Source: Candidatus Nanohaloarchaea archaeon (GTDB taxonomy: Archaea > Nanohalarchaeota > Nanosalinia > Nanosalinales > Nanosalinaceae). Taken from it: a stretch of 32,114 nucleotides of DNA. Positions 3,063 through 27,646 of the stretch are shown here, piece by piece. The notes under the pieces were generated by a model. That model worked only from the letters and a program-made list of their open reading frames with translations. It ran no database searches and was not told the DNA's origin. Position 1 is the stretch's first letter. Every line of letters begins with the position of its first letter. The stretch covers positions 1-32,114 of the forward strand of contig JBDGSJ010000029.1 of the NCBI GenBank assembly GCA_042217585.1, given 5' to 3'. A program made the position numbers and the translations under genes.

Positions 3063-3140
3063 GGCACCACATTTATGTAAGAATCTTAAATACTTACCGC
3101 GGCACTCCTCGGTGTTGAGAAACCCCTGAGGACCGTATCA

Positions 3141-3163
3141 GAGGGGAAAAAGGGATATCTCCC
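3141..3163 (-). terminator. Possible terminator after the Roadblock gene
   Basis: Minus strand GGGA-GATA-TCCC mini-hairpin followed by TTTTT just after the stop codon. Confidence 0.35.
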
Positions 3164-3169
3164 GTACTT

Positions 3170-3535
3170 CTAGAGGACTCTCTTGATCTTCTTGGTCGCT
3201 TTCTCCATCTCTACCTTGACAAGCCCCATGTTCACGTCTGAGTCCGTAAGTATGGTCAGTATACCTTCCTCGCCAGCACCTGTCGACACGAGTTTCCCGT
3301 TTTCGCTTTCGATTGTGACTTGGTTGACTTCGCCCATTTTGAGGGCTTCGCTGGCGGTTTCTCCTGAGCCTACTGTGGATGCGGTCATTGCGCCGACCTG
3401 GTCGTCATCGATGTCCTGTCCGAGGTTGGACGCGATCAAAAGTCCGTCCCTCCGGACCACAGCCGCACCCTTGATACCCTGAACATCATTCAAATCATCC
3501 AAAGGCTCATTCAGTTTTTCTTCCTTGCTTGCCAT
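3170..3535 (-). CDS. Roadblock/LC7 domain protein (MglB-like)
   Basis: 121 aa; GIKGAAVVRRDGLLIAS...VGAMTA...VTIESENGKLV...ILTILT..NMGLV; directly downstream of a small GTPase gene. Confidence 0.92.
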   Translation of the reverse strand: MASKEEKLNEPLDDLNDVQGIKGAAVVRRDGLLIASNLGQDIDDDQVGAMTASTVGSGETASEALKMGEVNQVTIESENGKLVSTGAGEEGILTILTDSDVNMGLVKVEMEKATKKIKRVL

Positions 3536-8019: not shown

Positions 8020-9120
8020 TCAGAGAGACTGATCGTGTTCCTCCAGGAACTGCTCCACCTCTGGACCTGCCTGCTCCCTCCTCTCCCTGTGCTCCACGAG
8101 GAACTCCTCGAGCCTTTCCTTCGCTATCTGCTTCAGCTCCCCTGAAAGCATTTCACCTGAGCTGTACTCCTCCCTGATCCTCTCAAGCTCGTCGTCGTTC
8201 TCTATCAAGTGGAATGCCAGGAGCTCGAACACCATGTCCTCGGAGATATCGGCACCTTTCTCCCTGTGTTCCTCGAGAGAGTCCTGGCCCCCGGTCTTGG
8301 CCTGATCTATCTTTTCCTTGGCGTCCTCGATGTCGTCCGTCAGAGCTATGTAGCTCTTGGGATCCGAGGAACTCATCTTCCCTCCCTGCAGCCCTCTCAT
8401 GAACTTGTTGTACGTGGAGGCCGGCTTCACGAAGTCTATCTCCTGGTACTTGGAGGCGACCTCCCTTGTCAGCCTGATGTGGGGATCCTGGTCCACCCCT
8501 ACCGGTACCACGGTCGGCTTCGGACCTCCCCTCTCCGGGAACTGCGGGCGGAGTATATCGGCGTACTGGGTTAGCGAGGAGGCTATCTTGCCGGGGTCCG
8601 CGCTCCCGTACGTCGCCTCGACCTCGTTCTGCGTGAGGTGACGGGCGAACTGCTTGGACCTGAGGTGGTAGTCGTTCCCCCCATTGGACTGGAAGTAAAA
8701 GTCGGTTTTTTCAAGGTCCATGCCGAGAGCCACGTAGTTCTTGAGGTACTGCTCCACGACCAGCTCACGGGATTCCTCCAGAGAGATGTCACGAGTGGCG
8801 TATGCCTCTATATCGGCCGCGGCTACGGTCACCTCGGCTCCCATCTCCTGGTACATCAGTATCTGGTCCACGACGCTCTTGTGGCCGAAGTGGAAGATAC
8901 CTGAGGGCATTATACCGGTCATCATAGCGATGTCCTCGCCCTCATCCCTCGCGTCAAGGAAGTCCTCCATGCCTCTGTGGCCGAATATTATACCCCTGCG
9001 GACCAGGAGGCTGTCCGGCATCCGGTCCTCGATCTCACCTATCGGATCTATACCGAACTTCTGCATCTTTTTCCTGTAGTTCCCGACCTCGACGTCTCCC
9101 CAAGGATCTATCTCTGGCAT
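8020..9120 (-). CDS. trpS: Tryptophanyl-tRNA synthetase
   Basis: IDPWG, TGIMPSGIFHFGH (HIGH), PVGVDQDPHIRLTR, KMSSS, AKTGG. Confidence 0.97.
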   Translation of the reverse strand: MPEIDPWGDVEVGNYRKKMQKFGIDPIGEIEDRMPDSLLVRRGIIFGHRGMEDFLDARDEGEDIAMMTGIMPSGIFHFGHKSVVDQILMYQEMGAEVTVAAADIEAYATRDISLEESRELVVEQYLKNYVALGMDLEKTDFYFQSNGGNDYHLRSKQFARHLTQNEVEATYGSADPGKIASSLTQYADILRPQFPERGGPKPTVVPVGVDQDPHIRLTREVASKYQEIDFVKPASTYNKFMRGLQGGKMSSSDPKSYIALTDDIEDAKEKIDQAKTGGQDSLEEHREKGADISEDMVFELLAFHLIENDDELERIREEYSSGEMLSGELKQIAKERLEEFLVEHRERREQAGPEVEQFLEEHDQSL

Positions 9121-10205: not shown

Positions 10206-10964
10206 TCAAGATCCATCTGGAGAGCCACCCGCCAGTTCACTGGTTTTCTCCGTGATGTCACCTGACATTATCGCAGAGCCTATCAGACAGGCGTCCGCGC
10301 CCGACCCCATCATCCTCTCGACGTCCTCCCGGGTCTTCAGACCGCTCTCGGCGACCAGTGTCAGGTCCCCGGATGCTTTCGGCGCCAGTCTCTCCACGGT
10401 ACCGAGATCCACTTCAAGCTCTGAGAGGTCCCGGTTGTTGATGCCCAGTACCTCCGCATCGGTCTCCAGGGCTAACTCCAGCTCCTGCTCCGTGTGGACC
10501 TCGACCAGCGGCTGGAAACCCCTGTCCCTGGCCTCGCGGACCATCTCGCCGAGGTCGTCCACGAATCGGGCTATCAGCAAAACCATGTCTGCCTCCACCC
10601 TGTCCAGCTGGGAGGGCTCGAGAATGAAGTCCTTCCTCAGTACGGGGACGTCCACTGCATCCCTGACCCTCCGGAGCAGCCGGGCGGAACCTTTGAAGTG
10701 ATCCGGCTCAGTGAGGACGGAGATGGCGGCGGCCCCTCCCTCCACCATCTTCTCCGCGGCATGTACCAGGTCCTGCTCCTTCTCGTAGTCGGAGGTCGGA
10801 CTTGTCGGCTTGACCTCTGCGATGACAGGGTCCCTGCCGTCCATTCTGGCCTCCTCAAGTGCACCGCTGAGGTCGCGGGGATCGACGGAGACCCTTCCCT
10901 CCGGGGTGGACCGCTGGCGGGCGCTCCGGAGTATCTCCCGCACCCGCGGGTCGACATCGTCCAT
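10206..10964 (-). CDS. trpC: Indole-3-glycerol phosphate synthase
   Basis: [47 protein letters not shown]. Confidence 0.97.
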
Positions 10965-11566
10965 CAGTCCTCACCTCCCGGTTCTCTGCGGTTCCTGTGC
11001 TCCCGGGCTCTCTCGACGAAGTTCTCTATCATTTCGTGGCCGTGAGAGGTCAGGATGCTCTCCGGGTGGAACTCGACGCCTTCCATCGGTCTCTCGGTGT
11101 GGCGGATACCCATCACAAGTCCGTCCGCCTCCGAGACGACCTCGAACTCCTCAGGCGTCTCCGAGACTATCAGCGAGTGGTACCTTCCGACGGGGAAACC
11201 CTGCGGGAGACCGTCGTATATCTCCTCGCCGTCGTGTTCCAGCGACGAGGTCTTACCGTGGACCGGTTCCGGCGCTCTATCGACCTCTCCGCCGAAAGCC
11301 TCTGCCATCGCCTGGTGTCCGAGGCAGACCCCGAGCATCGGGGTGTCGGAGAACTCCCTGATTATCTCAAGCATGTTGCCGGTGTCGGATTTCTTCGCGG
11401 GATGGCCCGGCCCGGGCGAAAGGACTATCGCGTCCGGATCTATCTCCCGCACCTCCTCCACGGTTACAGTGTTCTTCTCCACGACGAGGTCCTCCTCTTC
11501 CAGGCTGATGTACTCGACGAGGTTCCAGGTGAAGGAGTCGAAGTTGTCGACCATCAGGATCTTCAT
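10964..11566 (-). CDS. trpG: Anthranilate synthase component II
   Basis: [34 protein letters not shown]. Confidence 0.97.
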
Positions 11567-13125
11567 TCTTCCACCTCCAGCTCTTCAAGGGTGTCCAGAA
11601 GCGCACCCATCTTCTTCTCGGTCTCCTCGAACTCCTTCTCCGGCTCCGAGTCCGCCACTATGCCCCCGCCGGCCTGGACCGTCATCAGTTTCCTGTCCCC
11701 GATATGCCTGAAGCTTGCGGTCCTTATCGTGATCGCGAGGTCGCAGTCGACGAGCTTACCTGACCCTGAACTGCTGGAGTTCCAGGAGTAGTATCCGACG
11801 CCCCCTCCGTAGACACCACGGGGGCTCTGCTCAAGCCGGTCTATTATCTTCATGGCGCGGATCTTGGGAGCCCCGGAGAGAGTGCCCGCGGGGAAGATAG
11901 AACGCGTGGCGTCGAAGGCGTCCTTTCCCTCCCTCAGCTGGCCCGTGACCGTGGACTCCATGTGCTGGACGTGGGAGTACTGGACCACGGACATCAGCTC
12001 CTCCAGCTCGATGGTCCCGGGCTTCGAGACCCGTCTCACGTCGTTCCTCCCCAGGTCCACCAGCATGGAGTGCTCCGCCAGCTCCTTCTCATCGGAGAGC
12101 ATCTGTCCGGCCAGTCTGCGGTCCTCCACTGCGTTTTCACCACGGCCCACCGTTCCGGCTATAGGGTTCGTGCTGAGTTTCCCGTCGTCCACACTCAGCA
12201 GCGTCTCCGGGCTGGAACCGGCGACGGAGAAACCGTCGAACTCCAGCAGGTACATGTATGGAGAGGGGTTCAGCTCCCTGAGCTTCTCGTAGTACTCCCT
12301 GACGTCTCCGCGGACCTCGATCTCATGCTTCCTGGAGAGAACTGCCTGGAATATGTCCCCCTCCAGGATGTGCTCCCCGGCTTCCTCGACCATCTCGGCG
12401 TGCGGCTCCCTGTCGCCCGAGCTGTGGTCCAGGATCCTGAACCCTTCCCTGAAATCCGGTTCATGGTCCTCGACCTTCCGCTCCACTTCATCAAGAAGTT
12501 CCTCTGCCTCCCGGTACGCCTCTCCCGGGTCCTCGTCTACCATAGGCAGCACCACGAGCCGGACCTCGTCCTCCCTGTGGTCGAACACTATGTTCCTCGT
12601 GGAGAGGACGAACCGGGCGTCAGGAGTCTCTGACTCGCTCTCCCGGTCTATCCAGAGGTCGTTGACGACGTCATAGGCCAGGAATCCGACAAGACCTCCG
12701 GAGAAGACCTGCCGCCCGGATTCCTCGAACCCGTCAGGCGTCCTGTCCGGGAACGCCTCCCTTATCACGTCCAGCGTATCCCTGTCGTCCTTTATGCGGC
12801 CGTCTGGACCTACGCCCGGGAGCTCGATGTCCTCACCTCCGAGCCGCCTGAACTCGACCTCCCGGTCGTTAACGGTCAGGACCGCTTCCGGGTCGAAACC
12901 TATGAACGAGTACCTGTTCCTGTCACCGGTGTCGCCGGCATCCGCCTGCTTGATCTCGGATATCTCCTTCTCTGCGCTCTCCAGCAGGAAGGAGTAGTCC
13001 GTGCTGAGCGCGGAGTAGACCTGGAGAGGGTCCTCATCGATATCCAGAGGTGCCTCGAGCCGCACGACTTTACCTGGACCGGCTCTATCCCTGAACTCCT
13101 CCTCGGAGAGGTCGAACTCAGTCAC
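11563..13125 (-). CDS. trpE: Anthranilate synthase component I
   Basis: FLLESAE, NPSPYMY, SSPETL, PIAGT, EHSMLVDLGRND, FPAGTLSGAPK. Confidence 0.97.
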   Translation of the reverse strand: MTEFDLSEEEFRDRAGPGKVVRLEAPLDIDEDPLQVYSALSTDYSFLLESAEKEISEIKQADAGDTGDRNRYSFIGFDPEAVLTVNDREVEFRRLGGEDIELPGVGPDGRIKDDRDTLDVIREAFPDRTPDGFEESGRQVFSGGLVGFLAYDVVNDLWIDRESESETPDARFVLSTRNIVFDHREDEVRLVVLPMVDEDPGEAYREAEELLDEVERKVEDHEPDFREGFRILDHSSGDREPHAEMVEEAGEHILEGDIFQAVLSRKHEIEVRGDVREYYEKLRELNPSPYMYLLEFDGFSVAGSSPETLLSVDDGKLSTNPIAGTVGRGENAVEDRRLAGQMLSDEKELAEHSMLVDLGRNDVRRVSKPGTIELEELMSVVQYSHVQHMESTVTGQLREGKDAFDATRSIFPAGTLSGAPKIRAMKIIDRLEQSPRGVYGGGVGYYSWNSSSSGSGKLVDCDLAITIRTASFRHIGDRKLMTVQAGGGIVADSEPEKEFEETEKKMGALLDTLEELEVEE

Positions 13126-13748
13126 GGCGAAACACCCCTCGCGGAGCTCACGAAATCCTCTATCTTCTGGCTCTGCTTCTTTCCGTCCTCCTCGACTCCT
13201 GAGGAGACATCGACGGCGTCCGGGGAGACATCCTCTATCGCCTCCCCGACGTTCTCCGGGGTCAGTCCCCCGGCAAGTATGATCGGGACCTCTGCCTTCC
13301 GTGCGATCTCCGCGGCCTCACCGCGGTCGAACTCCTCGCCCGTGCCGCCGCGGCCTTTCTCCCCCGAGGAATCCAGCAGAAGAGCGTCCACAACCTCCTC
13401 GAACCTCTCTGCCTCCCGGGTCGACCCCACCTTCCGGACCAGGTCCGCAGGGATCTGCTGGCGGAGCTCTCTCACCTGGCCGGGGTCAAGGCCGGAGTGA
13501 ATCTGCAGGACATCCACTCCTGTCTCGCGGTATATCTTTTCCGCCTCCGGAACATCCTCCGGCATCGTGACCGCCACCGTAGAGATGAAAGGTGGTGTGT
13601 AACCGGCGAGTTCACGTGTCTCACCGGCATCGAGGTCTCTGTGGGTGTCAACCGGGACCTCTGTCACGAATCCGACGGCGTCTGCATTGGCTTTCACGGC
13701 CATGGATACCTCTTCCCGGGTCTTCAGGCCGCAGATCTTCACCCTCAC
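13122..13748 (-). CDS. trpF: Phosphoribosylanthranilate isomerase
   Basis: VKICGL, LQIH, GGTG, ILAGGLTPENV, VDVSSGVE. Confidence 0.96.
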   Translation of the reverse strand: MRVKICGLKTREEVSMAVKANADAVGFVTEVPVDTHRDLDAGETRELAGYTPPFISTVAVTMPEDVPEAEKIYRETGVDVLQIHSGLDPGQVRELRQQIPADLVRKVGSTREAERFEEVVDALLLDSSGEKGRGGTGEEFDRGEAAEIARKAEVPIILAGGLTPENVGEAIEDVSPDAVDVSSGVEEDGKKQSQKIEDFVSSARGVSP

Positions 13749-14746
13749 TGGTACTCCCTCATCTGGTCCAGCTTCTCGACGGTTTTCCCCTCTCTTATGG
13801 ACCGGCGGGCTATCTCGATCCCCTCCTGTATCGAGTCGGCCCTGCCGGAGACGTAGAGAGCGGCCCCGGTGTTCGCGAGTACGATATCCCTCTTCGCGCC
13901 GGTTTCCTCGCCGGAAAGTATCCTGCGGAGGTGCTCTGCGTTCTCCTCCGGCGGACCTCCCTCTATCTCGCTGACAGGGCTGGTATCGAGCCCCAGGTCG
14001 CCAGGCGCGATGCTGTACCTCTCCACGTCTTCCCCTGTCACCTCTGCGACCTCTGTCTCTCCGTGAACGGCTATCTCGTCCAGCCCTGAGCCGTGGACCA
14101 CGAGCGCCTTCTCGACGTCCATCATCGAGATAGCGCCCGCGATCCTGTCGACCAGTTCGGGGCTGTAGACCCCCACTACCTGTCCATCGACGTCGGCGGG
14201 GTTTGTGAGCGGTCCGAGGATGTTGAATACCGTCTCGATTCCGAGGTCCTTTCTCGGTCCTATCACCCTCTCCATCGCCGGGTGGAACACGGGTGCAAGC
14301 TGGAAACCTATGCCTACCTCCTCTATCACCGTCTCCACTCTCCCGGGCTCCGCACCTATCTCTATCCCGAGCTTTTCCAGGACATCGGCGCTCCCGCTCT
14401 TCGATGAGACCGAGTAGTTGCCATGCTTGGCGACCGAGGCTCCTGAGGCAGCGGCCACGATGGCGCTCGTGGTGGAGACGTTTATGGTGTCGTATTCGTC
14501 CCCTCCCGTCCCGCAGGTGTCTATCAGGCGGTCCCTGTCCGGATCTATCTTCTCGGCCTCCTCCCTCATCTTCCGGGCGAATCCTGCGATCTCCGCGTCG
14601 GTCTCCCCCTTCTGGCTCAGGCCTGCGAGCAGCGCCCCTATCTCAGCGTCAGATGCCCCCTCGAATACGTATTCGAGGGTCTCACTCGCCTCTTTTCTCG
14701 TAAGGTTTTTCCCGTTTACAGCTTTCTCGATTGTAGTGCTTGTCAT
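13745..14746 (-). CDS. trpD: Anthranilate phosphoribosyltransferase
   Basis: DTCGTGGD, NVSTT, KHGN, SGSADVLE, FNILGPLTNPA, GLDE. Confidence 0.97.
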   Translation of the reverse strand: MTSTTIEKAVNGKNLTRKEASETLEYVFEGASDAEIGALLAGLSQKGETDAEIAGFARKMREEAEKIDPDRDRLIDTCGTGGDEYDTINVSTTSAIVAAASGASVAKHGNYSVSSKSGSADVLEKLGIEIGAEPGRVETVIEEVGIGFQLAPVFHPAMERVIGPRKDLGIETVFNILGPLTNPADVDGQVVGVYSPELVDRIAGAISMMDVEKALVVHGSGLDEIAVHGETEVAEVTGEDVERYSIAPGDLGLDTSPVSEIEGGPPEENAEHLRRILSGEETGAKRDIVLANTGAALYVSGRADSIQEGIEIARRSIREGKTVEKLDQMREYQ

Positions 14747-15330
14747 TCTGATTCACCTCTGATCCTGGTCTCATTCTCCTCAACGACCACGCTGAAGCCT
14801 GTCTTGGGTTCCAGACCCGTCTCTTCCTTCACTTTCTCGATCCCTCCGAACTGGGGTTTCTGGCAGATAGTGACGATATCGACGATCTCCGCGCCGATAT
14901 CTCTGAGTATCTCCACCAGGTTCACCAGGGTTGATCCTGTGGAGACCAGGTCCTCAACTATGATCACCCTGTCACCCGGTTCTATACCGTTGACGTAGAT
15001 CGATCCCTCGGTGTAGCCGTTACTCATCCCTGTGTCGTGCTCCCCCTCGAGCTCGGAAGGGTAGAACTTGGCAAGGGAGAACGGAACACCGGTGCGGACC
15101 GATATGTGGGAGACAAGGATACCTCCACGGTCCTCCTCCCCGAGTATGACATCGGCCTCCTCGAACCCTCCCTCCTGTATCAGGAAATCACAGGCCGACT
15201 CGAAGAGTTCAGGTGAACACGCCGGTATCTGGTCCGTCAGCGGGTTCACCACGTACTCGTACTCTCCGGTCTCCTGGACCGGCTGGTCCTTCCAGCTCTC
15301 CTTCACTTTCTCGAGAGGGTCAGAAGTCAT
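14743..15330 (-). CDS. Type I purine phosphoribosyltransferase (adenine/hypoxanthine PRT-like)
   Basis: YEYVVNPLTD, PRPP-binding VIIVEDLVSTGST; start set at ATG 15330 behind a GGTGA SD, overlapping the trpA end. Confidence 0.8.
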   Translation of the reverse strand: MTSDPLEKVKESWKDQPVQETGEYEYVVNPLTDQIPACSPELFESACDFLIQEGGFEEADVILGEEDRGGILVSHISVRTGVPFSLAKFYPSELEGEHDTGMSNGYTEGSIYVNGIEPGDRVIIVEDLVSTGSTLVNLVEILRDIGAEIVDIVTICQKPQFGGIEKVKEETGLEPKTGFSVVVEENETRIRGESE

Positions 15331-16087
15331 CTCCATCACCTTCCACGGCGGATGAGACCTTTTCAGCGAGTTCACGCATCCCCTCAGGGCCGTCCTCCCT
15401 GTACCGGTCGATGAGGGCGCTACCCATTATGACGCCGTCAGCCCCCGAATCGATCGCCGTTCTCGCCTGTTCAGGTCCTGATATCCCGAAACCTATGCAC
15501 CGGGGGACATCCATACCTTCTGTCTTCTCCACGAGTCCTCTTGACTTGGATGAGAACTCGTCTCTCGCCCCTGTAGTCCCTTTCACGGAGACAAGGTAGG
15601 CAAACCCTTCGGTCATCTCCCCTATCGTCTCTATCCTTTCCTCCGGCGTGTTCTGGGACACCAGGAAGATGTGGTCCAGCGGGCTGTCCACGTCGGAGAA
15701 CTCCTCCCTGAACTCGCCGGGAGGCATGTCGGGTATTATCAGTCCTTCCACCCCTGCGCTATCGGCGTCGTCAACGAACTCCTGGTACCCGTAGCTGTAG
15801 ACCGTGTTGGCATACGCCAGCAATACTATCGGCGTGTCCCCGAACTCGGAGCTTATCTCGAAAACTTCATCTACAGTAGTTCCGGCCTGGAGGGCGGCGT
15901 GGTCAGCCTCCTTTATCGTCGGTCCGTCAGCCATCGGATCGCTGAACGGAACGCCGAGTTCGACCACGTCCGCACCTGAATCGATGAGCGCTCTCACCAT
16001 CTCCTTTGACCTTTCGACATCGGGGTAACCGGCGACGGTGAACGGGACGAATGACGGGTCCTCGAGCGCTTCCTCAATCGAACTCAA
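15320..16087 (-). CDS. trpA: Tryptophan synthase alpha chain
   Basis: [47 protein letters not shown] start at 16087 behind GGAGGTG. Confidence 0.95.
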
Positions 16088-17237
16088 GGCCTTCCACCTC
16101 CGCAACCGTGTCCATGTCCTTGTCTCCCCTTCCGGAGAGATTGACGACTATGGTCTCGTGTTCATCCGCGATCTGTTTCGTGAGCGCGACAGCGTGGGAG
16201 GACTCCAGTGCCGGAATGATGCCCTCCTCCTCGCAGAGGTCCCGGAAAGCGTCCATCGCCTCCTGGTCCGTGACAGGGCTGTACTCGGCCCTTCCCAGGA
16301 CCTTCATCTCGGAGTGCTCGGGACCGACACCGGGATAGTCCAGTCCCGCGGACACCGACTCGGTCTCCTCAATGTTCCCCTCGTCGTCCTGGAGCAGGTA
16401 GGACCTGAATCCCTGGAAGATGCCTGGCTCTCCTTCGGAGAGCGTCGCGGCGTTTCCACCTTCCTCCGGTCCGCCGGCCTCTGCTCCGTAGAAATCAACC
16501 TCCGTATCCCTGAACTCGTGGAAGAGGCCGAGCGCGTTGCTTCCTCCTCCGACGCAGGCGACCAGGGCGTCAGGTAGCTCTCCCTCCTTCTCCATCACCT
16601 GTCTCCGGGTCTCCTCCCCTATCACGCTCTGGAAGTACCGGACCATCTCCGGGAACGGTTCGGGACCGACAACGGAGCCTATCAGGTAGTGGGTGTCGTC
16701 CGAGTTCGCCACGTAGTCCTGGATGGCTGCGGTGACGGCGTCCTTCAGCGTCTCGGACCCTTCCTCGACCGGGTTCACCTCGGCCCCGCATTTCTCGATC
16801 CTTAGCGCGTTCATCTTCTGCCTCTCGACGTCCTTGCGACCCATGTATATCTCGACGTCCATGTCGAGGTAGGCTCCGGCCATCGCCGTCGCTATACCGT
16901 GCTGACCGGCCCCTGTCTCTGCGATCAGGCGGTCCTTGCCCATCCTTTTCGCGAGCAGGGCCTGGCCCAGCGTGTTGTTTATCTTGTGGGCTCCGCCGTG
17001 TAGGAGGTCCTCACGTTTCAGGTATATCTCCGCACCGTATTTCTCGGAGAGGTTCTCCGCGTGGTAGAGGTTCGTCGGTCTTCCCGCGTACTCCTCCAGG
17101 TGGCGCCGGAAATCCTCTCTGAACTCCTCGCTGTCCTTCGCCTCCTCGAACTCCTCCTGGAGTTCCTGGAGGACCGGGACGAGAAGCTCCGGCACGAACC
17201 TCCCACCGAACCGGGATTCCGCCTTCCCGGAGGTCAT
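16074..17237 (-). CDS. trpB: Tryptophan synthase beta chain
   Basis: [15 protein letters not shown] (PLP lysine), [37 protein letters not shown]. Confidence 0.98.
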
Positions 17238-17288
17238 CTACCTGCACCTCCGGACCTATCAGAAAAAGCATTGAGGTTATTCCTGGAT

Positions 17289-17372
17289 TTAGAGAACAGT
17301 TCCAGTGCTGGAGGACCAAAAACGTCCACCTTTCCGATCCTCCGCAGCGTATGCGAAGCCTGAACTTTTCAT
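17289..17372 (-). CDS. trpB proximal leader uORF MKSSGFAYAAEDRKGGRFWSSSTGTVL (27 aa)
   Basis: ATG 17372 preceded by AGGTGG; TAA 17291-17289; Trp codon 17318-17316; +1 frame ends in TGA 17236-17234 overlapping the trpB ATG. Confidence 0.8.
   Translation of the reverse strand: MKSSGFAYAAEDRKGGRFWSSSTGTVL
17316..17333 (-). promoter_or_regulatory. Putative +1 frameshift cassette, Trp sensor (AAA GGT GGA CGT TTT TGG)
   Basis: Conserved cassette, in frame with the leader ATG. Confidence 0.8.
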
Positions 17373-17406
17373 GAGTCTTTCCACCTACTACCAGAGTACT
17401 CGGAAA

Positions 17407-17425
17407 GCTTTAAATAGCTTAAAGC
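17407..17425. promoter_or_regulatory. Palindromic TATA/operator GCTTTAA-N5-TTAAAGC
   Basis: Perfect 7-bp inverted repeat; 17 nt identical to 9311-9327. Confidence 0.65.
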
Positions 17426-17583
17426 CTCCGAAAACCCTTCAAATCGCCACAAATAAGCCTGGAGAGGATAAAAACGGTTGAAAATGGCTGAAATATCGGT
17501 GTCGGAGCCATGAGGATCTGGAGACGGAGCTTATTCCCATGTAGTTCAGAAGAGAACGGTCAGTTGACCGGGCCGGAGGAAGC

Positions 17584-17601
17584 CCAAAAACGTCCACCCT
17601 T
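17584..17601 (-). promoter_or_regulatory. Putative +1 frameshift cassette, Trp sensor, second of the tandem pair
   Basis: AAG GGT GGA CGT TTT TGG lying 58 nt (19 codons + 1) downstream of the first copy, so in its +1 frame. Confidence 0.78.
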
Positions 17602-17617
17602 CAGATAGAAGCGGCTC

Positions 17618-17668
17618 TCACAGAGAACTGAGTTCCCGGGTCCAAAAACGTCCACCCTTCTGAGCCAT
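17618..17668 (-). CDS. trp operon distal leader uORF MAQKGGRFWTRELSSL (16 aa)
   Basis: ATG 17668, about 24 nt downstream of TTTAAAA (17698-17692), leaderless spacing; TGA 17620-17618. Confidence 0.78.
   Translation of the reverse strand: MAQKGGRFWTRELSSL
17642..17659 (-). promoter_or_regulatory. Putative +1 frameshift cassette, Trp sensor, first of the tandem pair
   Basis: AAG GGT GGA CGT TTT TGG in frame with ATG 17668. Confidence 0.8.
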
Positions 17669-17703
17669 ACCGGTACTTACCGCCTCCACTGTTTTAAACC
17701 TTT

Positions 17704-18852
17704 TCAGGAATCCCACTCGAGCTGTATGTCCGGCTCACCGGAAGGTAAATCCTCCCTCTCTCCGGGACCGTAGACCTTCCTGAACCCCACCATCTCTTTC
17801 GTTTTATCCCTCACCTGACTTCTCTGACTGGAGGCCGCGAGGACTGCCGATCCCATTGCCGCCGTATCGAGGTTCTCGGGCTCCCGGACCTTCCTCCCGA
17901 ATACCCCGGCCCTGATTCTGTTCCAGTTCTCCACGCTTTCTCCGCCGCCCGCTGTTATCTTCTCTCCCGCCCCTACCTCATCGAGCTTCGTCTTCATAGA
18001 TACTGCCTCCTCTCTCACCTTTTCCCTGCCAGGCATGGAGTCCTGGAACGGCGATGGAGCGTAAAAGGACCTGAGCCCCAGTCCATCGTAGTAGAAATCC
18101 TTGTTGGCGTCCTCCCCAGGCTTCAGGACGCTTATCTTCCTTGTGGTGCCGAAATCGACGGCCGTATCCCCTTCCCCGGTGAGCCCACAGCCGATGGCAG
18201 CGCATATCTCGTCCCACGGGCAGCTCACCACCCGGGCGTCCTGAAGCCCGAACTCCGAGCCTATCTCTCCCTCTGCCATCGTTCTTTCAGTGAAGTCGAT
18301 GGACCGGGGGAACAGCGACGACCGCATCCCGTGCTCCTCGCACAGCCTCTCGAGGTCCCCGTCGGGGAAGTCAAAGGAATTCCTCCTGAACTCACCAGTG
18401 AAAAGGTAGAAGACGTAATCCCTGGCATCAATCATGTATTCGGCCTCCTCGAGAGCCCCGGAGAAATTCTGTCTGAGCCAGCTGTAGTTCTGGCACAGCA
18501 TCCTTCTCCCGCCCTTGAGCCCGCTGAAATCCTGCTCCAGTTCCCCGCTCCGGCGGTCCATATAGGCCAACACGGGCGGGCTGATGGATTCTCCAGAGGA
18601 GTCAACGGGGAAAAAGGCTCCTCCGAGGCCTGTCACCGCTATCCGGTCTATCCCGCTCAATCCCGGATCCTCCTCGATCTTCTTCAGGTTCCTTTTCAGG
18701 GTCCTCCGCCAGTCACTGACCCGGTGCTCGGCGTATCCGTCACGTGGAGCGTGTACAGGAAGTTTCTCTCTTACACCGAAGACCTGTTCTCCATCCTGGC
18801 GGAAGACAAGGACCTTGCAGCTGCTTGATCCCAGGTCTACGGAGAGTATCAT
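17704..18852 (-). CDS. FGGY-family carbohydrate kinase, C-terminal domain shortened
   Basis: SVDLGSSSCK, IAVTG, YMDRRS, DYVFYLFTG, AGGG...WNRIRAGVFG...AAMGSAVLA; only 382 aa. Confidence 0.8.
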   Translation of the reverse strand: MILSVDLGSSSCKVLVFRQDGEQVFGVREKLPVHAPRDGYAEHRVSDWRRTLKRNLKKIEEDPGLSGIDRIAVTGLGGAFFPVDSSGESISPPVLAYMDRRSGELEQDFSGLKGGRRMLCQNYSWLRQNFSGALEEAEYMIDARDYVFYLFTGEFRRNSFDFPDGDLERLCEEHGMRSSLFPRSIDFTERTMAEGEIGSEFGLQDARVVSCPWDEICAAIGCGLTGEGDTAVDFGTTRKISVLKPGEDANKDFYYDGLGLRSFYAPSPFQDSMPGREKVREEAVSMKTKLDEVGAGEKITAGGGESVENWNRIRAGVFGRKVREPENLDTAAMGSAVLAASSQRSQVRDKTKEMVGFRKVYGPGEREDLPSGEPDIQLEWDS

Positions 18853-25813: not shown

Positions 25814-25867
25814 ATGACAACCAAGGGTGGATGTTTTGGATCTGCCGCAAGGCAGGACTCCGAATGA
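25814..25867 (+). CDS. glyS leader uORF MTTKGGCFGSAARQDSE (17 aa)
   Basis: TATTTAA 25775-25781 upstream; ATG 25814; Gly codon 25838-25840 after TTT; +1 frame ends in TGA 25920-25922 overlapping the glyS ATG. Confidence 0.75.
   Translation: MTTKGGCFGSAARQDSE
25823..25840 (+). promoter_or_regulatory. Putative +1 frameshift cassette, Gly sensor (AAG GGT GGA TGT TTT GGA)
   Basis: Same cassette as in the trp leaders, with the sensor codon changed from TGG to GGA. Confidence 0.72.
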
Positions 25868-25918
25868 CGCATTTTACGTTCTCAAAACCTTTGATACAGC
25901 CGAGGAAGTGACCTCGAT

Positions 25919-27646
25919 ATGAGCGAGTCAGAGGAACTGGACGAGATAGCAAGGAGAAGAGGTTTCTACTCCCAGACCGCGGAATCCTACGGCGGTGTCG
26001 CCGGCTTCTACACCTTCGGTCCTGAAGGCGCCGAACTGAAGAGGAACATAGAGAACTCGTGGCGCGACTGGTTCAGGATACGTGAGGGCCACAGGGAGAT
26101 AGAGGCGCCGACGATCATGCCGGAACCGATCTTCGAGTCCTCCGGCCACCTCGACGGCTTCGACGACATGATAATCGAATGCCCCGAGTGCGGTACGAGC
26201 TCGAGGGCGGACCACCTCGTCGAGGACAACACCGATATCGAGGAGGCGGAGAGCTTTTCCACGGACCAGATAGAGGCGCTCATCGAGGATCACGACCTCT
26301 GCTGCCCGACCTGCGGACACGACCTGACAGGTATCGAGGTGGACGACTTCAACCTGATGTTCAGCACGAACATCGGTCCAGGCGACTCCTCGCCCGGCTA
26401 CCTCAGGCCCGAGACCGCACAAGGCATCTTCGCCGAGTTCCCGAGGTTCAAGGAGTACGCCCGCGAACAGCTGCCCTTCGCGATCACACAGCTCGGAAAG
26501 GCGTACAGGAACGAGATAAGCCCGCGGAACGCGCTGGTCCGGGTCCGCGAGTTCACCCAGGCGGAGCTGGAGCACTTCATAGATCCTGAGAGGGATGAAC
26601 CGGAGCTCGAAAAGGTCGAGGACATCGAGCTGAAGCTCTATCCCGCCGAGAAACAGGGAGAGGGCGAATACGTCAGGGCGACGGTCCGCGAGGCGGTCGA
26701 GAACGGTATAATCGAGTCAGAGTGGATCGCCTACTACCTCGGACTGGCGAAGCAGTGGTACATGAGCATAGGCGTCGACATGGACCGATTCAGGTTCAGG
26801 CAGCACCTGGAGGGCGAGAGAGCCCATTACGCCACGGACTGCTGGGACGCCGAGAGCGAGGTCGACGGCGACTGGATAGAGATAGCCGGTTTCGCCTACA
26901 GGGGCTGCTACGACCTGAAGAAGCACCACGAGAACTCCGAGGACGACTTCAGGATATTCAGACAGTACGACGAGCCGAAGACCGTCGAGGATAAGACCGT
27001 CAACCCTGACATGGGATACCTCGGCCCCGAGTACGGAGAGAAAGCCGGCGACATAGCAGAAAGCCTTGAAAAACTCGCAGAGGACGAACCCGAGGCGTTC
27101 GACTCCGATCACGTGACCGTGACGGTCGGCGACGAGGAGTTCGAGATACCGTCCGGAAAGGCGAACTTCAGCGTCGAGGAGAAGGAGAAGAACGGCGAGA
27201 AGTTCCTTCCGCACGTCGTCGAGCCCTCCTTCGGTATCGGCAGGACTGTCTACACGGTCCTCGCCCACCGGATGGAGGAAGAGGAGATAGAAGACGGTGA
27301 GAGGACCGTGATGAGGTTCTCACCGGAGATAGCGCCGACGGAGGTCGCCGTCCTTCCCCTGATGGACAAGGAGGGCATGGGAGAGAAGGCAGAGGAACTG
27401 GTCCGGCGGCTCAGGGCCGAGAGCTTCTCCGTCAGCGCTGATACCTCGGGAAGCATCGGTAGACGTTACCGGAGGCAGGACGAGGTCGGTACACCTGTCT
27501 GCGTCACCGTCGACTACGAGACGCTTGAGGAGGGCACCGTCACTCTGAGGGACCGGGACTCCACGGAGCAGGCCCGGGTGGATGTCGAGGACCTCGAGAG
27601 AAGCATCATAAGGTTCCTCTCCGGAACGGAGCTTGAGGACCTGTGA
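25919..27646 (+). CDS. glyS: Glycyl-tRNA synthetase (archaeal/eukaryotic alpha2 type)
   Basis: LRPETAQGIF, YRNEISPR, RVREFTQAELE, AHYA, VVEPSFGIGR, SIGRRYRRQDEVG. Confidence 0.97.
   Translation: MSESEELDEIARRRGFYSQTAESYGGVAGFYTFGPEGAELKRNIENSWRDWFRIREGHREIEAPTIMPEPIFESSGHLDGFDDMIIECPECGTSSRADHLVEDNTDIEEAESFSTDQIEALIEDHDLCCPTCGHDLTGIEVDDFNLMFSTNIGPGDSSPGYLRPETAQGIFAEFPRFKEYAREQLPFAITQLGKAYRNEISPRNALVRVREFTQAELEHFIDPERDEPELEKVEDIELKLYPAEKQGEGEYVRATVREAVENGIIESEWIAYYLGLAKQWYMSIGVDMDRFRFRQHLEGERAHYATDCWDAESEVDGDWIEIAGFAYRGCYDLKKHHENSEDDFRIFRQYDEPKTVEDKTVNPDMGYLGPEYGEKAGDIAESLEKLAEDEPEAFDSDHVTVTVGDEEFEIPSGKANFSVEEKEKNGEKFLPHVVEPSFGIGRTVYTVLAHRMEEEEIEDGERTVMRFSPEIAPTEVAVLPLMDKEGMGEKAEELVRRLRAESFSVSADTSGSIGRRYRRQDEVGTPVCVTVDYETLEEGTVTLRDRDSTEQARVDVEDLERSIIRFLSGTELEDL

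Follow-up and report, generated by a model that had tools for sequence, protein, structure and literature searches.

In the 32,114-nucleotide (nt) stretch of Candidatus Nanohaloarchaea archaeon analysed here (contig JBDGSJ010000029.1 of assembly GCA_042217585.1; 'the window' below), trpB, the first gene of a trp operon, is preceded by a short leader open reading frame (ORF) that contains a compact, conserved nucleotide module ending in a single specifier codon. Our favoured reading, to which we assign a probability of about 70%, is that the module is a prfB-like programmed +1 frameshift site, at which ribosomes would change frame when the cognate aminoacyl-tRNA is scarce, with the gene behind the leader then translated by coupling. 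How the element is built, how far it is conserved, that its specifier fits the gene behind it and that the +1 frame is linked to this gene are all seen directly in the genomes. That the codon acts as an amino-acid-specific sensor, read in the frame of the leader, is close to certain as an interpretation of these sequences, because codon and gene agree in every non-Trp case in which the gene could be named.

A first-pass annotation of the window had proposed that a +1 shift at the Trp codon of this leader couples trpB translation to Trp supply. Comparative sequence data, rather than the single locus, now speak for that proposal because of the specifier match (33/33), the +1-frame linkage, the prfB-like anatomy and the trpB hairpin; they fit frameshift coupling, and no rival fits them equally well. 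The annotation had described one locus of a system that extends across the phylum. The layout at trpB is as follows.

17409..17425, minus strand: promoter-like block GCTTTAAGCTATTTAAA, about 37 nt ahead of the leader ATG, with a TATA-like TATTTAAA at 17416-17409
17381..17386, minus strand: Shine-Dalgarno (SD) sequence AGGTGG of the leader ORF, 8 nt ahead of its ATG
17289..17372, minus strand: leader ORF, frame 0, from ATG 17372-17370 to TAA 17291-17289, 27 codons, translating to MKSSGFAYAAEDRKGGRFWSSSTGTVL and a stop
17316..17333, minus strand: conserved module AAAGGTGGACGTTTTTGG, defined by repeat searches and by conservation across 117 distinct leaders
17234..17317, minus strand: +1 frame, 27 sense codons without Trp, whose TGA (17236-17234) overlaps the trpB ATG (17237-17235) as ATGA
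17226..17254, minus strand: predicted hairpin at the trpB ribosome-binding site, in which the SD GGAGGTG (17251-17245) pairs with CCTCCGG just past the start and the ATG lies in the loop region
16074..17237, minus strand: trpB, first gene of the operon, full-length match to TIGR00263 (E 2.9e-172)

At trpB the module consists of an SD-like GGTGGA (17330-17325), a CGT spacer, TTT as the P-site codon (17321-17319) and the specifier TGG (17318-17316), which is the only UGG of the leader ORF. Entering the +1 frame at 17317 means that the first base of TGG is skipped. Translation bears out what had been claimed for the leader, namely its own AGGTGG SD (17386-17381), the Trp-free +1 frame of 27 codons that runs into the trpB start, and a -1 frame that stays open for 103 codons and ends at 17011. 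The 4-nt stop/start overlap had also been described between genes of the operon, and it does recur there at four junctions (14746/14743, 13748/13745, 13125/13122 and 11566/11563). The block GCTTTAAGCTATTTAAA, presumably the promoter of the leader, occurs as an identical 17-mer at 17425-17409 and, before the leader of trpS, at 9327-9311.

The core of the module is a 15-mer, GGTGGACGTTTTTGG, read in the leader frame as GGT GGA CGT TTT TGG, of which the window holds four exact copies on the minus strand (first bases 17656, 17598, 17330 and 9254). Allowing up to three mismatches, the window contains five matches against 0.68 expected, a number reached in 0/100 shuffles. In the 0.98-Mb genome the 15-mer occurs six times, against none for the reversed control. 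Each copy lies inside a short ATG-led ORF whose stop follows 5-13 codons past the TGG. In all, 15 module leaders were found in this genome, with specifiers for Thr, Val, Leu, Pro, Ser, Gly, His and Trp. The pattern AARGGTGGAYGYKTT is present in 56 of 70 Nanohaloarchaeota genomes and in 47 of 49 within the family, the reversed control giving four matches in total; the Trp version, with at most one mismatch, was detected in 24 of the 36 same-family genomes searched.

Aligned over the 117 distinct leaders, the module follows the consensus AAR-GGTGGA-YGY-(T/G)TT-NNN, in which an SD-like element is followed, after a short spacer, by a P-site codon prone to shifting and by the specifier. AAR precedes the element, and positions 1-5 (GGTGG) are conserved at about 100%. 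A stands at position 6 in 96%, C or T at position 7, G at position 8, T or C at position 9 and T (83%) or G at position 10, while positions 11-12 are TT in 100%, after which the specifier codon begins. The synonymous sites of GGT, GGA and TTT are invariant (TTC is never used) while amino acid replacements such as R to C, F to V and G to E occur, and the constraint therefore acts on the RNA. A TnaC-like arrest peptide, KGGRFW, was considered and rejected, conservation being at the nucleotide and not the amino acid level. Two leaders carry GGGGGA in place of GGTGGA and hence have no GTG, with the rest of the architecture kept; these are L052 in G016 (596-707) and L054 in G013 (at about 500), and an assembly error in the G homopolymer is possible.

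The 16S rRNA 3' end of two relatives, read as GGATCACCTCC or GGAUCACCUCC, contains CCUCC and is complementary to GGTGG, and the downstream genes, too, have GGUG as the core of their SDs. The element lies 4-5 nt before the P-site codon, and the spacing from GGTG to the start codon at real downstream starts is 7-8 nt. In bacterial prfB, a short distance between the SD-like element and the P-site codon stimulates +1 shifting. The P-site tRNA could re-pair on UUU_U in 77 of the 117 leaders and on GUU_U in 7; the other 33, with UUU_A/G or GUU_C, would allow partial re-pairing only. UUU stands before sensor codons starting with U (77), A (11) or G (9). The A-site position is occupied by 19 different sense codons overall, UGG at trpB. 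In 116 of 129 matches the motif is reached in frame 0 by an open frame that begins with ATG; the corresponding numbers for the remaining frames are 13 and 10. Of 111 leaders, 90 have a TATA-like hexamer 24-45 nt upstream of their ATG, for which the background is 3%. Transcriptional slippage on the T-run was set aside; the run is no longer than 4-5 T, with 4 T before sensor codons whose first base is not T.

The specifier could be compared with the downstream gene after we had found, in one relative, a module with TTC in place of TGG upstream of pheS (MSPSEAQGTLKGGRFFRL, then a stop), whose +1-frame TGA overlaps the GTG start of pheS; pattern searches for other codons after (T/G)TT followed from this find. 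Naming the downstream genes with NCBIfam gave the following pairs for specifiers other than Trp.

UCC/UCU: serS, 9 of 9, plus 2
UAC/UAU: tyrS, 4 + 2
UUC: pheS, 3, with 2 more Phe leaders preceding ORFs without a family
GGA: glyS, 3, that of the window included
ACC: thrS, 3
GUA: valS, 2
UGU: cysS, 1
CCA: proS, 1
AAG: lysS, 1
AUU: ilvA, 1
CCG: proC/proB fusion, 1

Specifier and gene were thus concordant in 33 cases and discordant in none, with nine more lacking a family match, while UGG leaders precede trpS operons and trp genes. Several relatives have a UUC-specified leader coupled to pheS, unlike this genome: no Phe leader precedes the pheS of the window (3063-3170, minus strand), where a TATA-like box lies about 24 nt before the GTG start.

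The fate of each reading frame was surveyed in 100 distinct leaders, each followed by 1.3 kb of sequence or more. A frame was scored as coupled if its stop lay between -12 and +16 nt from the start of an ORF of at least 150 codons, and as fused if it was itself open for at least 150 codons. The genomes are related, so the leaders are not independent trials, though they span many genes and genera.

+1 frame: 43 coupled, 13 fused, 5 open for 70-149 codons, 39 unlinked
Frame 0: 1 coupled, 0 fused, 0 open for 70-149 codons, 99 unlinked
-1 frame: 8 coupled, 0 fused, 3 open for 70-149 codons, 89 unlinked

The offsets of the coupled +1 frames include -1 (ATGA or GTGA) in 16 cases and -5 in eight. In a first set of relatives, the +1 frame of the proximal Trp leader runs on into a long ORF in all 20 cases (78-467 codons), the -1 frames running for 1-21 codons. 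In 11 of these 20 fused ORFs the frame offers no start codon as far as the end of the motif other than the GTG within it, and the next in-frame start often lies 37-101 codons downstream. In six GNAT orthologues, amino acid conservation starts about 10 residues past the motif and its shift site. The unlinked leaders are mainly distal Trp leaders and those for Ile, Leu and Val.

In the mechanism that we propose, a ribosome would start on the leader ORF and translate GGU GGA CGU UUU until UUU occupied the P site and UGG the A site. Were Trp-tRNA(Trp) plentiful, UGG would be decoded, termination would follow nine codons on at 17291-17289, and the trpB SD and AUG would stay in the hairpin. Were it scarce, the A site would be left empty, GGUGGA, 3-4 nt upstream, would pair with the 3' end of 16S rRNA at less than the initiation spacing, and the P-site tRNA(Phe) would re-pair one base forward, from UUU to UUU. 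Translation in the +1 frame, over 27 codons, would then melt the trpB hairpin and terminate at the UGA of AUGA, with re-initiation on trpB, so that Trp starvation would turn the operon on. We infer from sequence the shift itself, its dependence on aminoacyl-tRNA, its stimulation by the SD-like element and the re-initiation at the overlapping start. Modification of tRNA(Phe) at position 37 restrains frameshifting, and this modification may be missing from the tRNA(Phe) of these genomes: no match to PF08608 (TYW1/Taw1, wyosine synthesis) was found in five of five genomes (G000, G017, G001, G016 and G019), in a search that also missed the Haloferax control.

The hairpin invoked for trpB has a predicted free energy of -17.3 kcal/mol (z -2.26; 5 of 200 shuffles fold as well) and also appears in the centroid of a 191-nt fold. 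The frame-0 stop lies about 50 nt upstream of it, whereas the +1 frame crosses it to reach AUGA; a hairpin crossed solely by +1-frame ribosomes is what a coupling model would need at trpB. The spacer of this leader has no second TATA-like box. Folded as a whole, the leaders show no extra stability over shuffles (z -0.70 for trpB, +0.50 for trpS), and neither fold contains a hairpin followed by a U-tract or a terminator/antiterminator pair. The module of the trpB leader sits in a 13-bp hairpin of its own (17310-17343, minus strand; GGAGGAUCGGAAA paired with UUUUUGGUCCUCC) with GGUGGAC in the loop, for which the trpS leader fold has no counterpart.

A number of observations weigh against frameshift coupling. 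At trpB itself, 36% of mononucleotide shuffles of the 66-nt spacer, register fixed, leave the +1 frame open to the trpB start, and with a register prior of 1/3 on top of this 0.36 the locus alone is not significant; the signal above chance comes from the recurrence of the 15-mer and from the comparative frame statistics. The 16S 3' end was taken from two relatives, the rRNA of this genome not being assembled, and RNA sequencing runs holding the leader sequence were not among the records listed, which are DNA contigs only. A slip would be followed by imperfect re-pairing wherever the sensor codon has A, G or C as its first base. Moreover, UUU precedes a C-starting sensor codon in 0 of 13 cases, GUU being used instead, though UUU_C would re-pair best; UUU_C may perhaps be too slippery, but this is an after-the-fact rationalisation. 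The +1 frame is linked to no gene in 39 of 100 leaders, which need another output, and the proximal Trp copy of G016, which has the GGGGGA variant, is neither fused nor coupled. The motif is missing from three of nine trpS loci with at least 3.9 kb of upstream flank. Masking of the ribosome-binding site is not a class-wide property and was rejected as such, since start-region structure (60-nt window) is no stronger in 37 coupled leaders (mean z -0.18) than at 60 control starts (mean z -0.08); downstream genes with good SDs, trpB included, might therefore initiate on their own. A second TATA-like box is present in several spacers (serS, trpS), which makes a basal, leader-independent transcript likely for these essential synthetases.

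Among the alternatives, the one that survives best, though we regard it as unlikely, is attenuation of the erm/cat type by stalling without any shift: a ribosome halted at UGG would cover the CCUCC just past it (17314-17310), whose pairing with the trpB SD GGAGG would thus be prevented, and the mRNA would be remodelled so as to free the ribosome-binding site of trpB. The logic of a sensor codon is equally compatible with stalling, and the UCCUCC after UGG can pair with the upstream GGAGGA (the 17343-17310 hairpin) or, in principle, with the trpB SD. The leaderless short ORFs by which mycobacteria sense Cys are listed as attenuators in an abstract (10.1101/834739). Yet stalling would leave unexplained why the +1 frame is linked to a gene in 61 of 100 leaders, against 1 for frame 0 and 11 for frame -1, and why fused proteins have no start codon to themselves. 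For the trpB SD, the predicted partner is the local CCUCCGG, which a ribosome stalled at UGG would miss by 60-80 nt. A conserved alternative structure was not seen, and structure around the start is not enriched in the class.

A less probable variant keeps the frameshift and moves its effect to transcription, with a +1-frame ribosome following the polymerase and suppressing premature termination in the spacer between leader and gene, whether at oligo-T tracts or by factor-dependent polarity, so that re-initiation would not be the main output. A T5 tract (17270-17266) does lie in the +1 ORF past the frame-0 stop, and the +1 ORFs of uncoupled leaders end in cognate codons (SW, ILIL or LLLVAVTVSVLV, each directly before the stop), often followed by T-runs. 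T-runs are not found in every spacer, however, and the clustering of +1 stops on the start codon (-1 in 16, -5 in eight) is a prediction of re-initiation and not of anti-termination. For the uncoupled leaders, their ends suggest a second, attenuator-like stage rather than coupling.

Slightly less probable again, and in our view improbable, is that the +1 ORF is an ordinary upstream ORF started at the GTG within GGTGGA (M-D-V-F-G...) and coupled to the gene, the ATG-led leader modulating access to this GTG. In nearly all copies a GTG does occupy motif positions 2-4 in the +1 frame, and it is often the sole start-like codon open to the fused ORFs. But a ribosome stalled at the sensor codon would cover this GTG, which lies 9 nt upstream of the P site; starvation would therefore lower expression, the wrong sign for trp, ilvA, proCB and the synthetases. 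The GTG has no SD before it, a start there does not account for the fixed synonymous sites of TTT, GGT and GGA, two bona fide GGGGGA leaders do without it, and nearly every leader has an ATG-led ORF in frame 0 behind a promoter-like box. A protein operator or RNA site for a TrpY-, Tar- or TRAP-like regulator, with frames incidental, would agree with nucleotide-level conservation downstream of promoter-like boxes, but it was rejected as very improbable on the codon-gene concordance, the same core preceding genes for at least 12 amino acids with only the gene-matching codon changed, its distance to the TATA-like box ranging from about 37 to about 85 nt, and its frame agreeing with the ATG in 116 of 129 matches.

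The +1 frameshift is thus favoured because it alone ties the sensor codon to the +1 linkage, to the start-less fused genes, to the prfB-like anatomy and to induction by starvation; of the models compared, it is the only one to give a physiologically sensible sign, with expression switched on by starvation. A broader claim, to which we give a little better than even odds, is that the module is a programmable specifier-codon switch used throughout the phylum, in which a 15-nt cassette plus one exchangeable codon would sense the charging of any tRNA in the ribosomal A site and turn its scarcity into a +1 shift that switches on the cognate synthetase or biosynthetic operon. It would be a ribosome-based archaeal counterpart of the T-box and a sense-codon counterpart of prfB.

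Three further leaders of the window show how the design is varied.

9278-9222, minus strand: trpS leader, translating to MVSAVSTKGGRFWILSKA and a stop, motif 9254-9240, trpS named by family match
25814..25922, plus strand: Gly leader, translating to MTTKGGCFGSAARQDSE and a stop, motif GGTGGATGTTTTGGA at 25826-25840, specifier GGA
17439..17668, minus strand: distal tandem Trp leaders, the first translating to MAQKGGRFWTRELSSL and a stop, with ATG at 17668 and motif 17656-17642

The +1 frame of the trpS leader runs for 39 codons to a TAA (9124-9122) that ends 1 nt before the trpS ATG at 9120. That of the Gly leader runs for 27 codons to a TGA overlapping the ATG of glyS at 25919 (ATGA), the gene matching TIGR00389 with E 1.2e-194. 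In the distal tandem pair, the +1 frame of the first motif is the 0 frame of the second (17598-17584), whose own +1 frame runs for 48 codons to a TGA (17441-17439) and contains YMGISSVSRSSW. Two shifts would be needed to translate this 48-codon ORF, whose peptide (Y-x-x-ISS-x-x-x-SW) recurs as a conserved feature of distal leaders in relatives. G010 and G016 have this tandem Trp design as well. Branched-chain leaders (G000:C19, about 46750-46400, minus strand; L115, L120, L124 and L134) carry two modules in one frame, Val or Ile followed by Leu, and the +1 ORF that the two share ends in a run of cognate codons (such as LLLVAVTVSVLV or ILIL) with T-runs behind it. Such arrangements resemble logic gates: tandem sites in one frame appear to act as OR (Ile or Leu), and sites in successive frames, as for the UGG codons of the motifs at 17656 and 17598, appear to act as AND or to give a squared response. 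A second-stage +1 peptide that ends in cognate codons appears to belong to this logic too.

Another Trp leader pair lies on contig C8 of this genome (G000:C8:1955-3285, plus strand), where the proximal leader opens, in its +1 frame, into an acidic ORF of 335 codons without a Pfam or NCBIfam family. In relatives, too, Trp leaders are usually paired, 240-335 nt apart. The distal leader is very short there (e.g. MAQKGGRFW...), and its +1 ORF of about 20-55 codons contains a conserved YLQISS(I/V)KNFSW with the stop a few codons on. The first gene of these Trp operons encodes a GNAT, an acidic protein of about 120 residues, a GCS2-, IMPase- or TrpD-like protein or an aminotransferase, often with an M20 peptidase or AstE/AspA-like gene behind it, and genes for TrpRS, a SpoIIM-like protein and PheRS alpha/beta follow. 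Genes for trpB itself are present in 6 of 41 family genomes searched; in two trpB-bearing relatives a +1-fused ORF of 122-126 residues lies between leader and trpB, and the direct 27-codon link from leader to trpB was not seen in the other genomes examined.

The operon downstream of the trpB leader is a complete trp operon (10206-17237, minus strand) in a nanohaloarchaeal genome of about 1 Mb, and its genes run trpB-trpA-(HPT-like)-trpD-trpF-trpE-trpG-trpC, followed by an AstE/AspA-like gene and then trpS. The gene between trpA and trpD resembles hypoxanthine/adenine phosphoribosyltransferases, and a truncated FGGY kinase-like ORF lies upstream of the operon.

Full-text literature searches turned up no account of the module, nor of archaeal synthetases controlled by leaders. 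The module lacks the structures that define leader-peptide attenuators and the T-box. If the frameshift reading holds, it would be the first natural case of a hungry-codon +1 frameshift designed as a sensor of amino acid supply, and the first leader-based, codon-specified aminoacyl-tRNA synthetase regulon in archaea. It would mean that tiny symbiont genomes regulate translation capacity without dedicated regulators, and it would supply an annotation rule for some 10-15 'frameshifted' or start-less genes per nanohaloarchaeal genome. As a compact part of about 20 nt, the module should also lend itself to amino acid biosensors whose specificity is changed by swapping one codon. Even if the shift were wrong, the codon-gene match would establish a new class of translated amino acid sensor in archaea.

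Among known systems, the leaderless short ORFs of mycobacteria carry runs of Cys codons at which ribosomes stall in a cysteine-responsive manner (10.1101/834739). They share with our leaders a place at the head of operons, a leaderless or nearly leaderless start and the sensing of one amino acid through its cognate codons; unlike for the module described here, the abstract describes no conserved shift module and no frame linkage. Slippage at hungry codons or codons of rare tRNAs, as in starved E. coli or at CUU_AGG_C of yeast Ty1, is promoted by an empty A site according to a 2016 recoding review, which adds that trans-frame products made specifically on starvation are not known from nature (PMC5009743). 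In those cases the shifts are errors, or constitutive sites tuned by a rare tRNA, whereas here the shift would be a designed signal. At trpB the stop lies within a few nt of the start, by way of ATGA, as in termination-reinitiation coupling.

In the E. coli trpL, hisL and pheL systems, cognate codons of a leader peptide sense charged tRNA and transcription is attenuated. Our leaders resemble this type in placing a short ORF with a cognate codon before a biosynthetic operon or synthetase (the logic of pheST or thrS), and differ in having a single sensor codon in a fixed context, a conserved nucleotide module upstream of it and a constrained +1 frame, with no terminator/antiterminator pair found in the trpB and trpS leader folds. 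The T-box of Gram-positive bacteria is an untranslated, structured RNA that binds tRNA directly. Like it, the module is a modular leader with an exchangeable specifier codon that matches the synthetase or biosynthesis gene, is deployed across a regulon and is proposed to respond to tRNA charging; unlike in the T-box, the codon would be read in the ribosomal A site. An Rfam cmscan of 16900-18000 at E up to 10 gave two chance matches and no family over the leader.

The closest comparison is with prfB, the gene of release factor 2 (RF2), in which bacteria use an autoregulatory +1 programmed frameshift at a CUU_U shift site with an SD-like element upstream. Both have an internal SD-like element a few nt upstream of an XUU_N P-site codon (UUU_U or GUU_N here), and in both frame 0 ends early and the +1 frame leads to the product, in what for the module would likewise be a negative feedback loop. 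The module departs from prfB in that its A-site codon is an exchangeable sense codon instead of UGA, and in that it is a detachable leader serving many genes (trpB, synthetases and others) in an archaeal host. Its output would mostly be termination and re-initiation at an overlapping stop/start, with fused forms occurring in the Trp operons of relatives. The module would thus work like prfB and yet stand outside the prfB family, because it has no UGA and its gene is not that of RF2.

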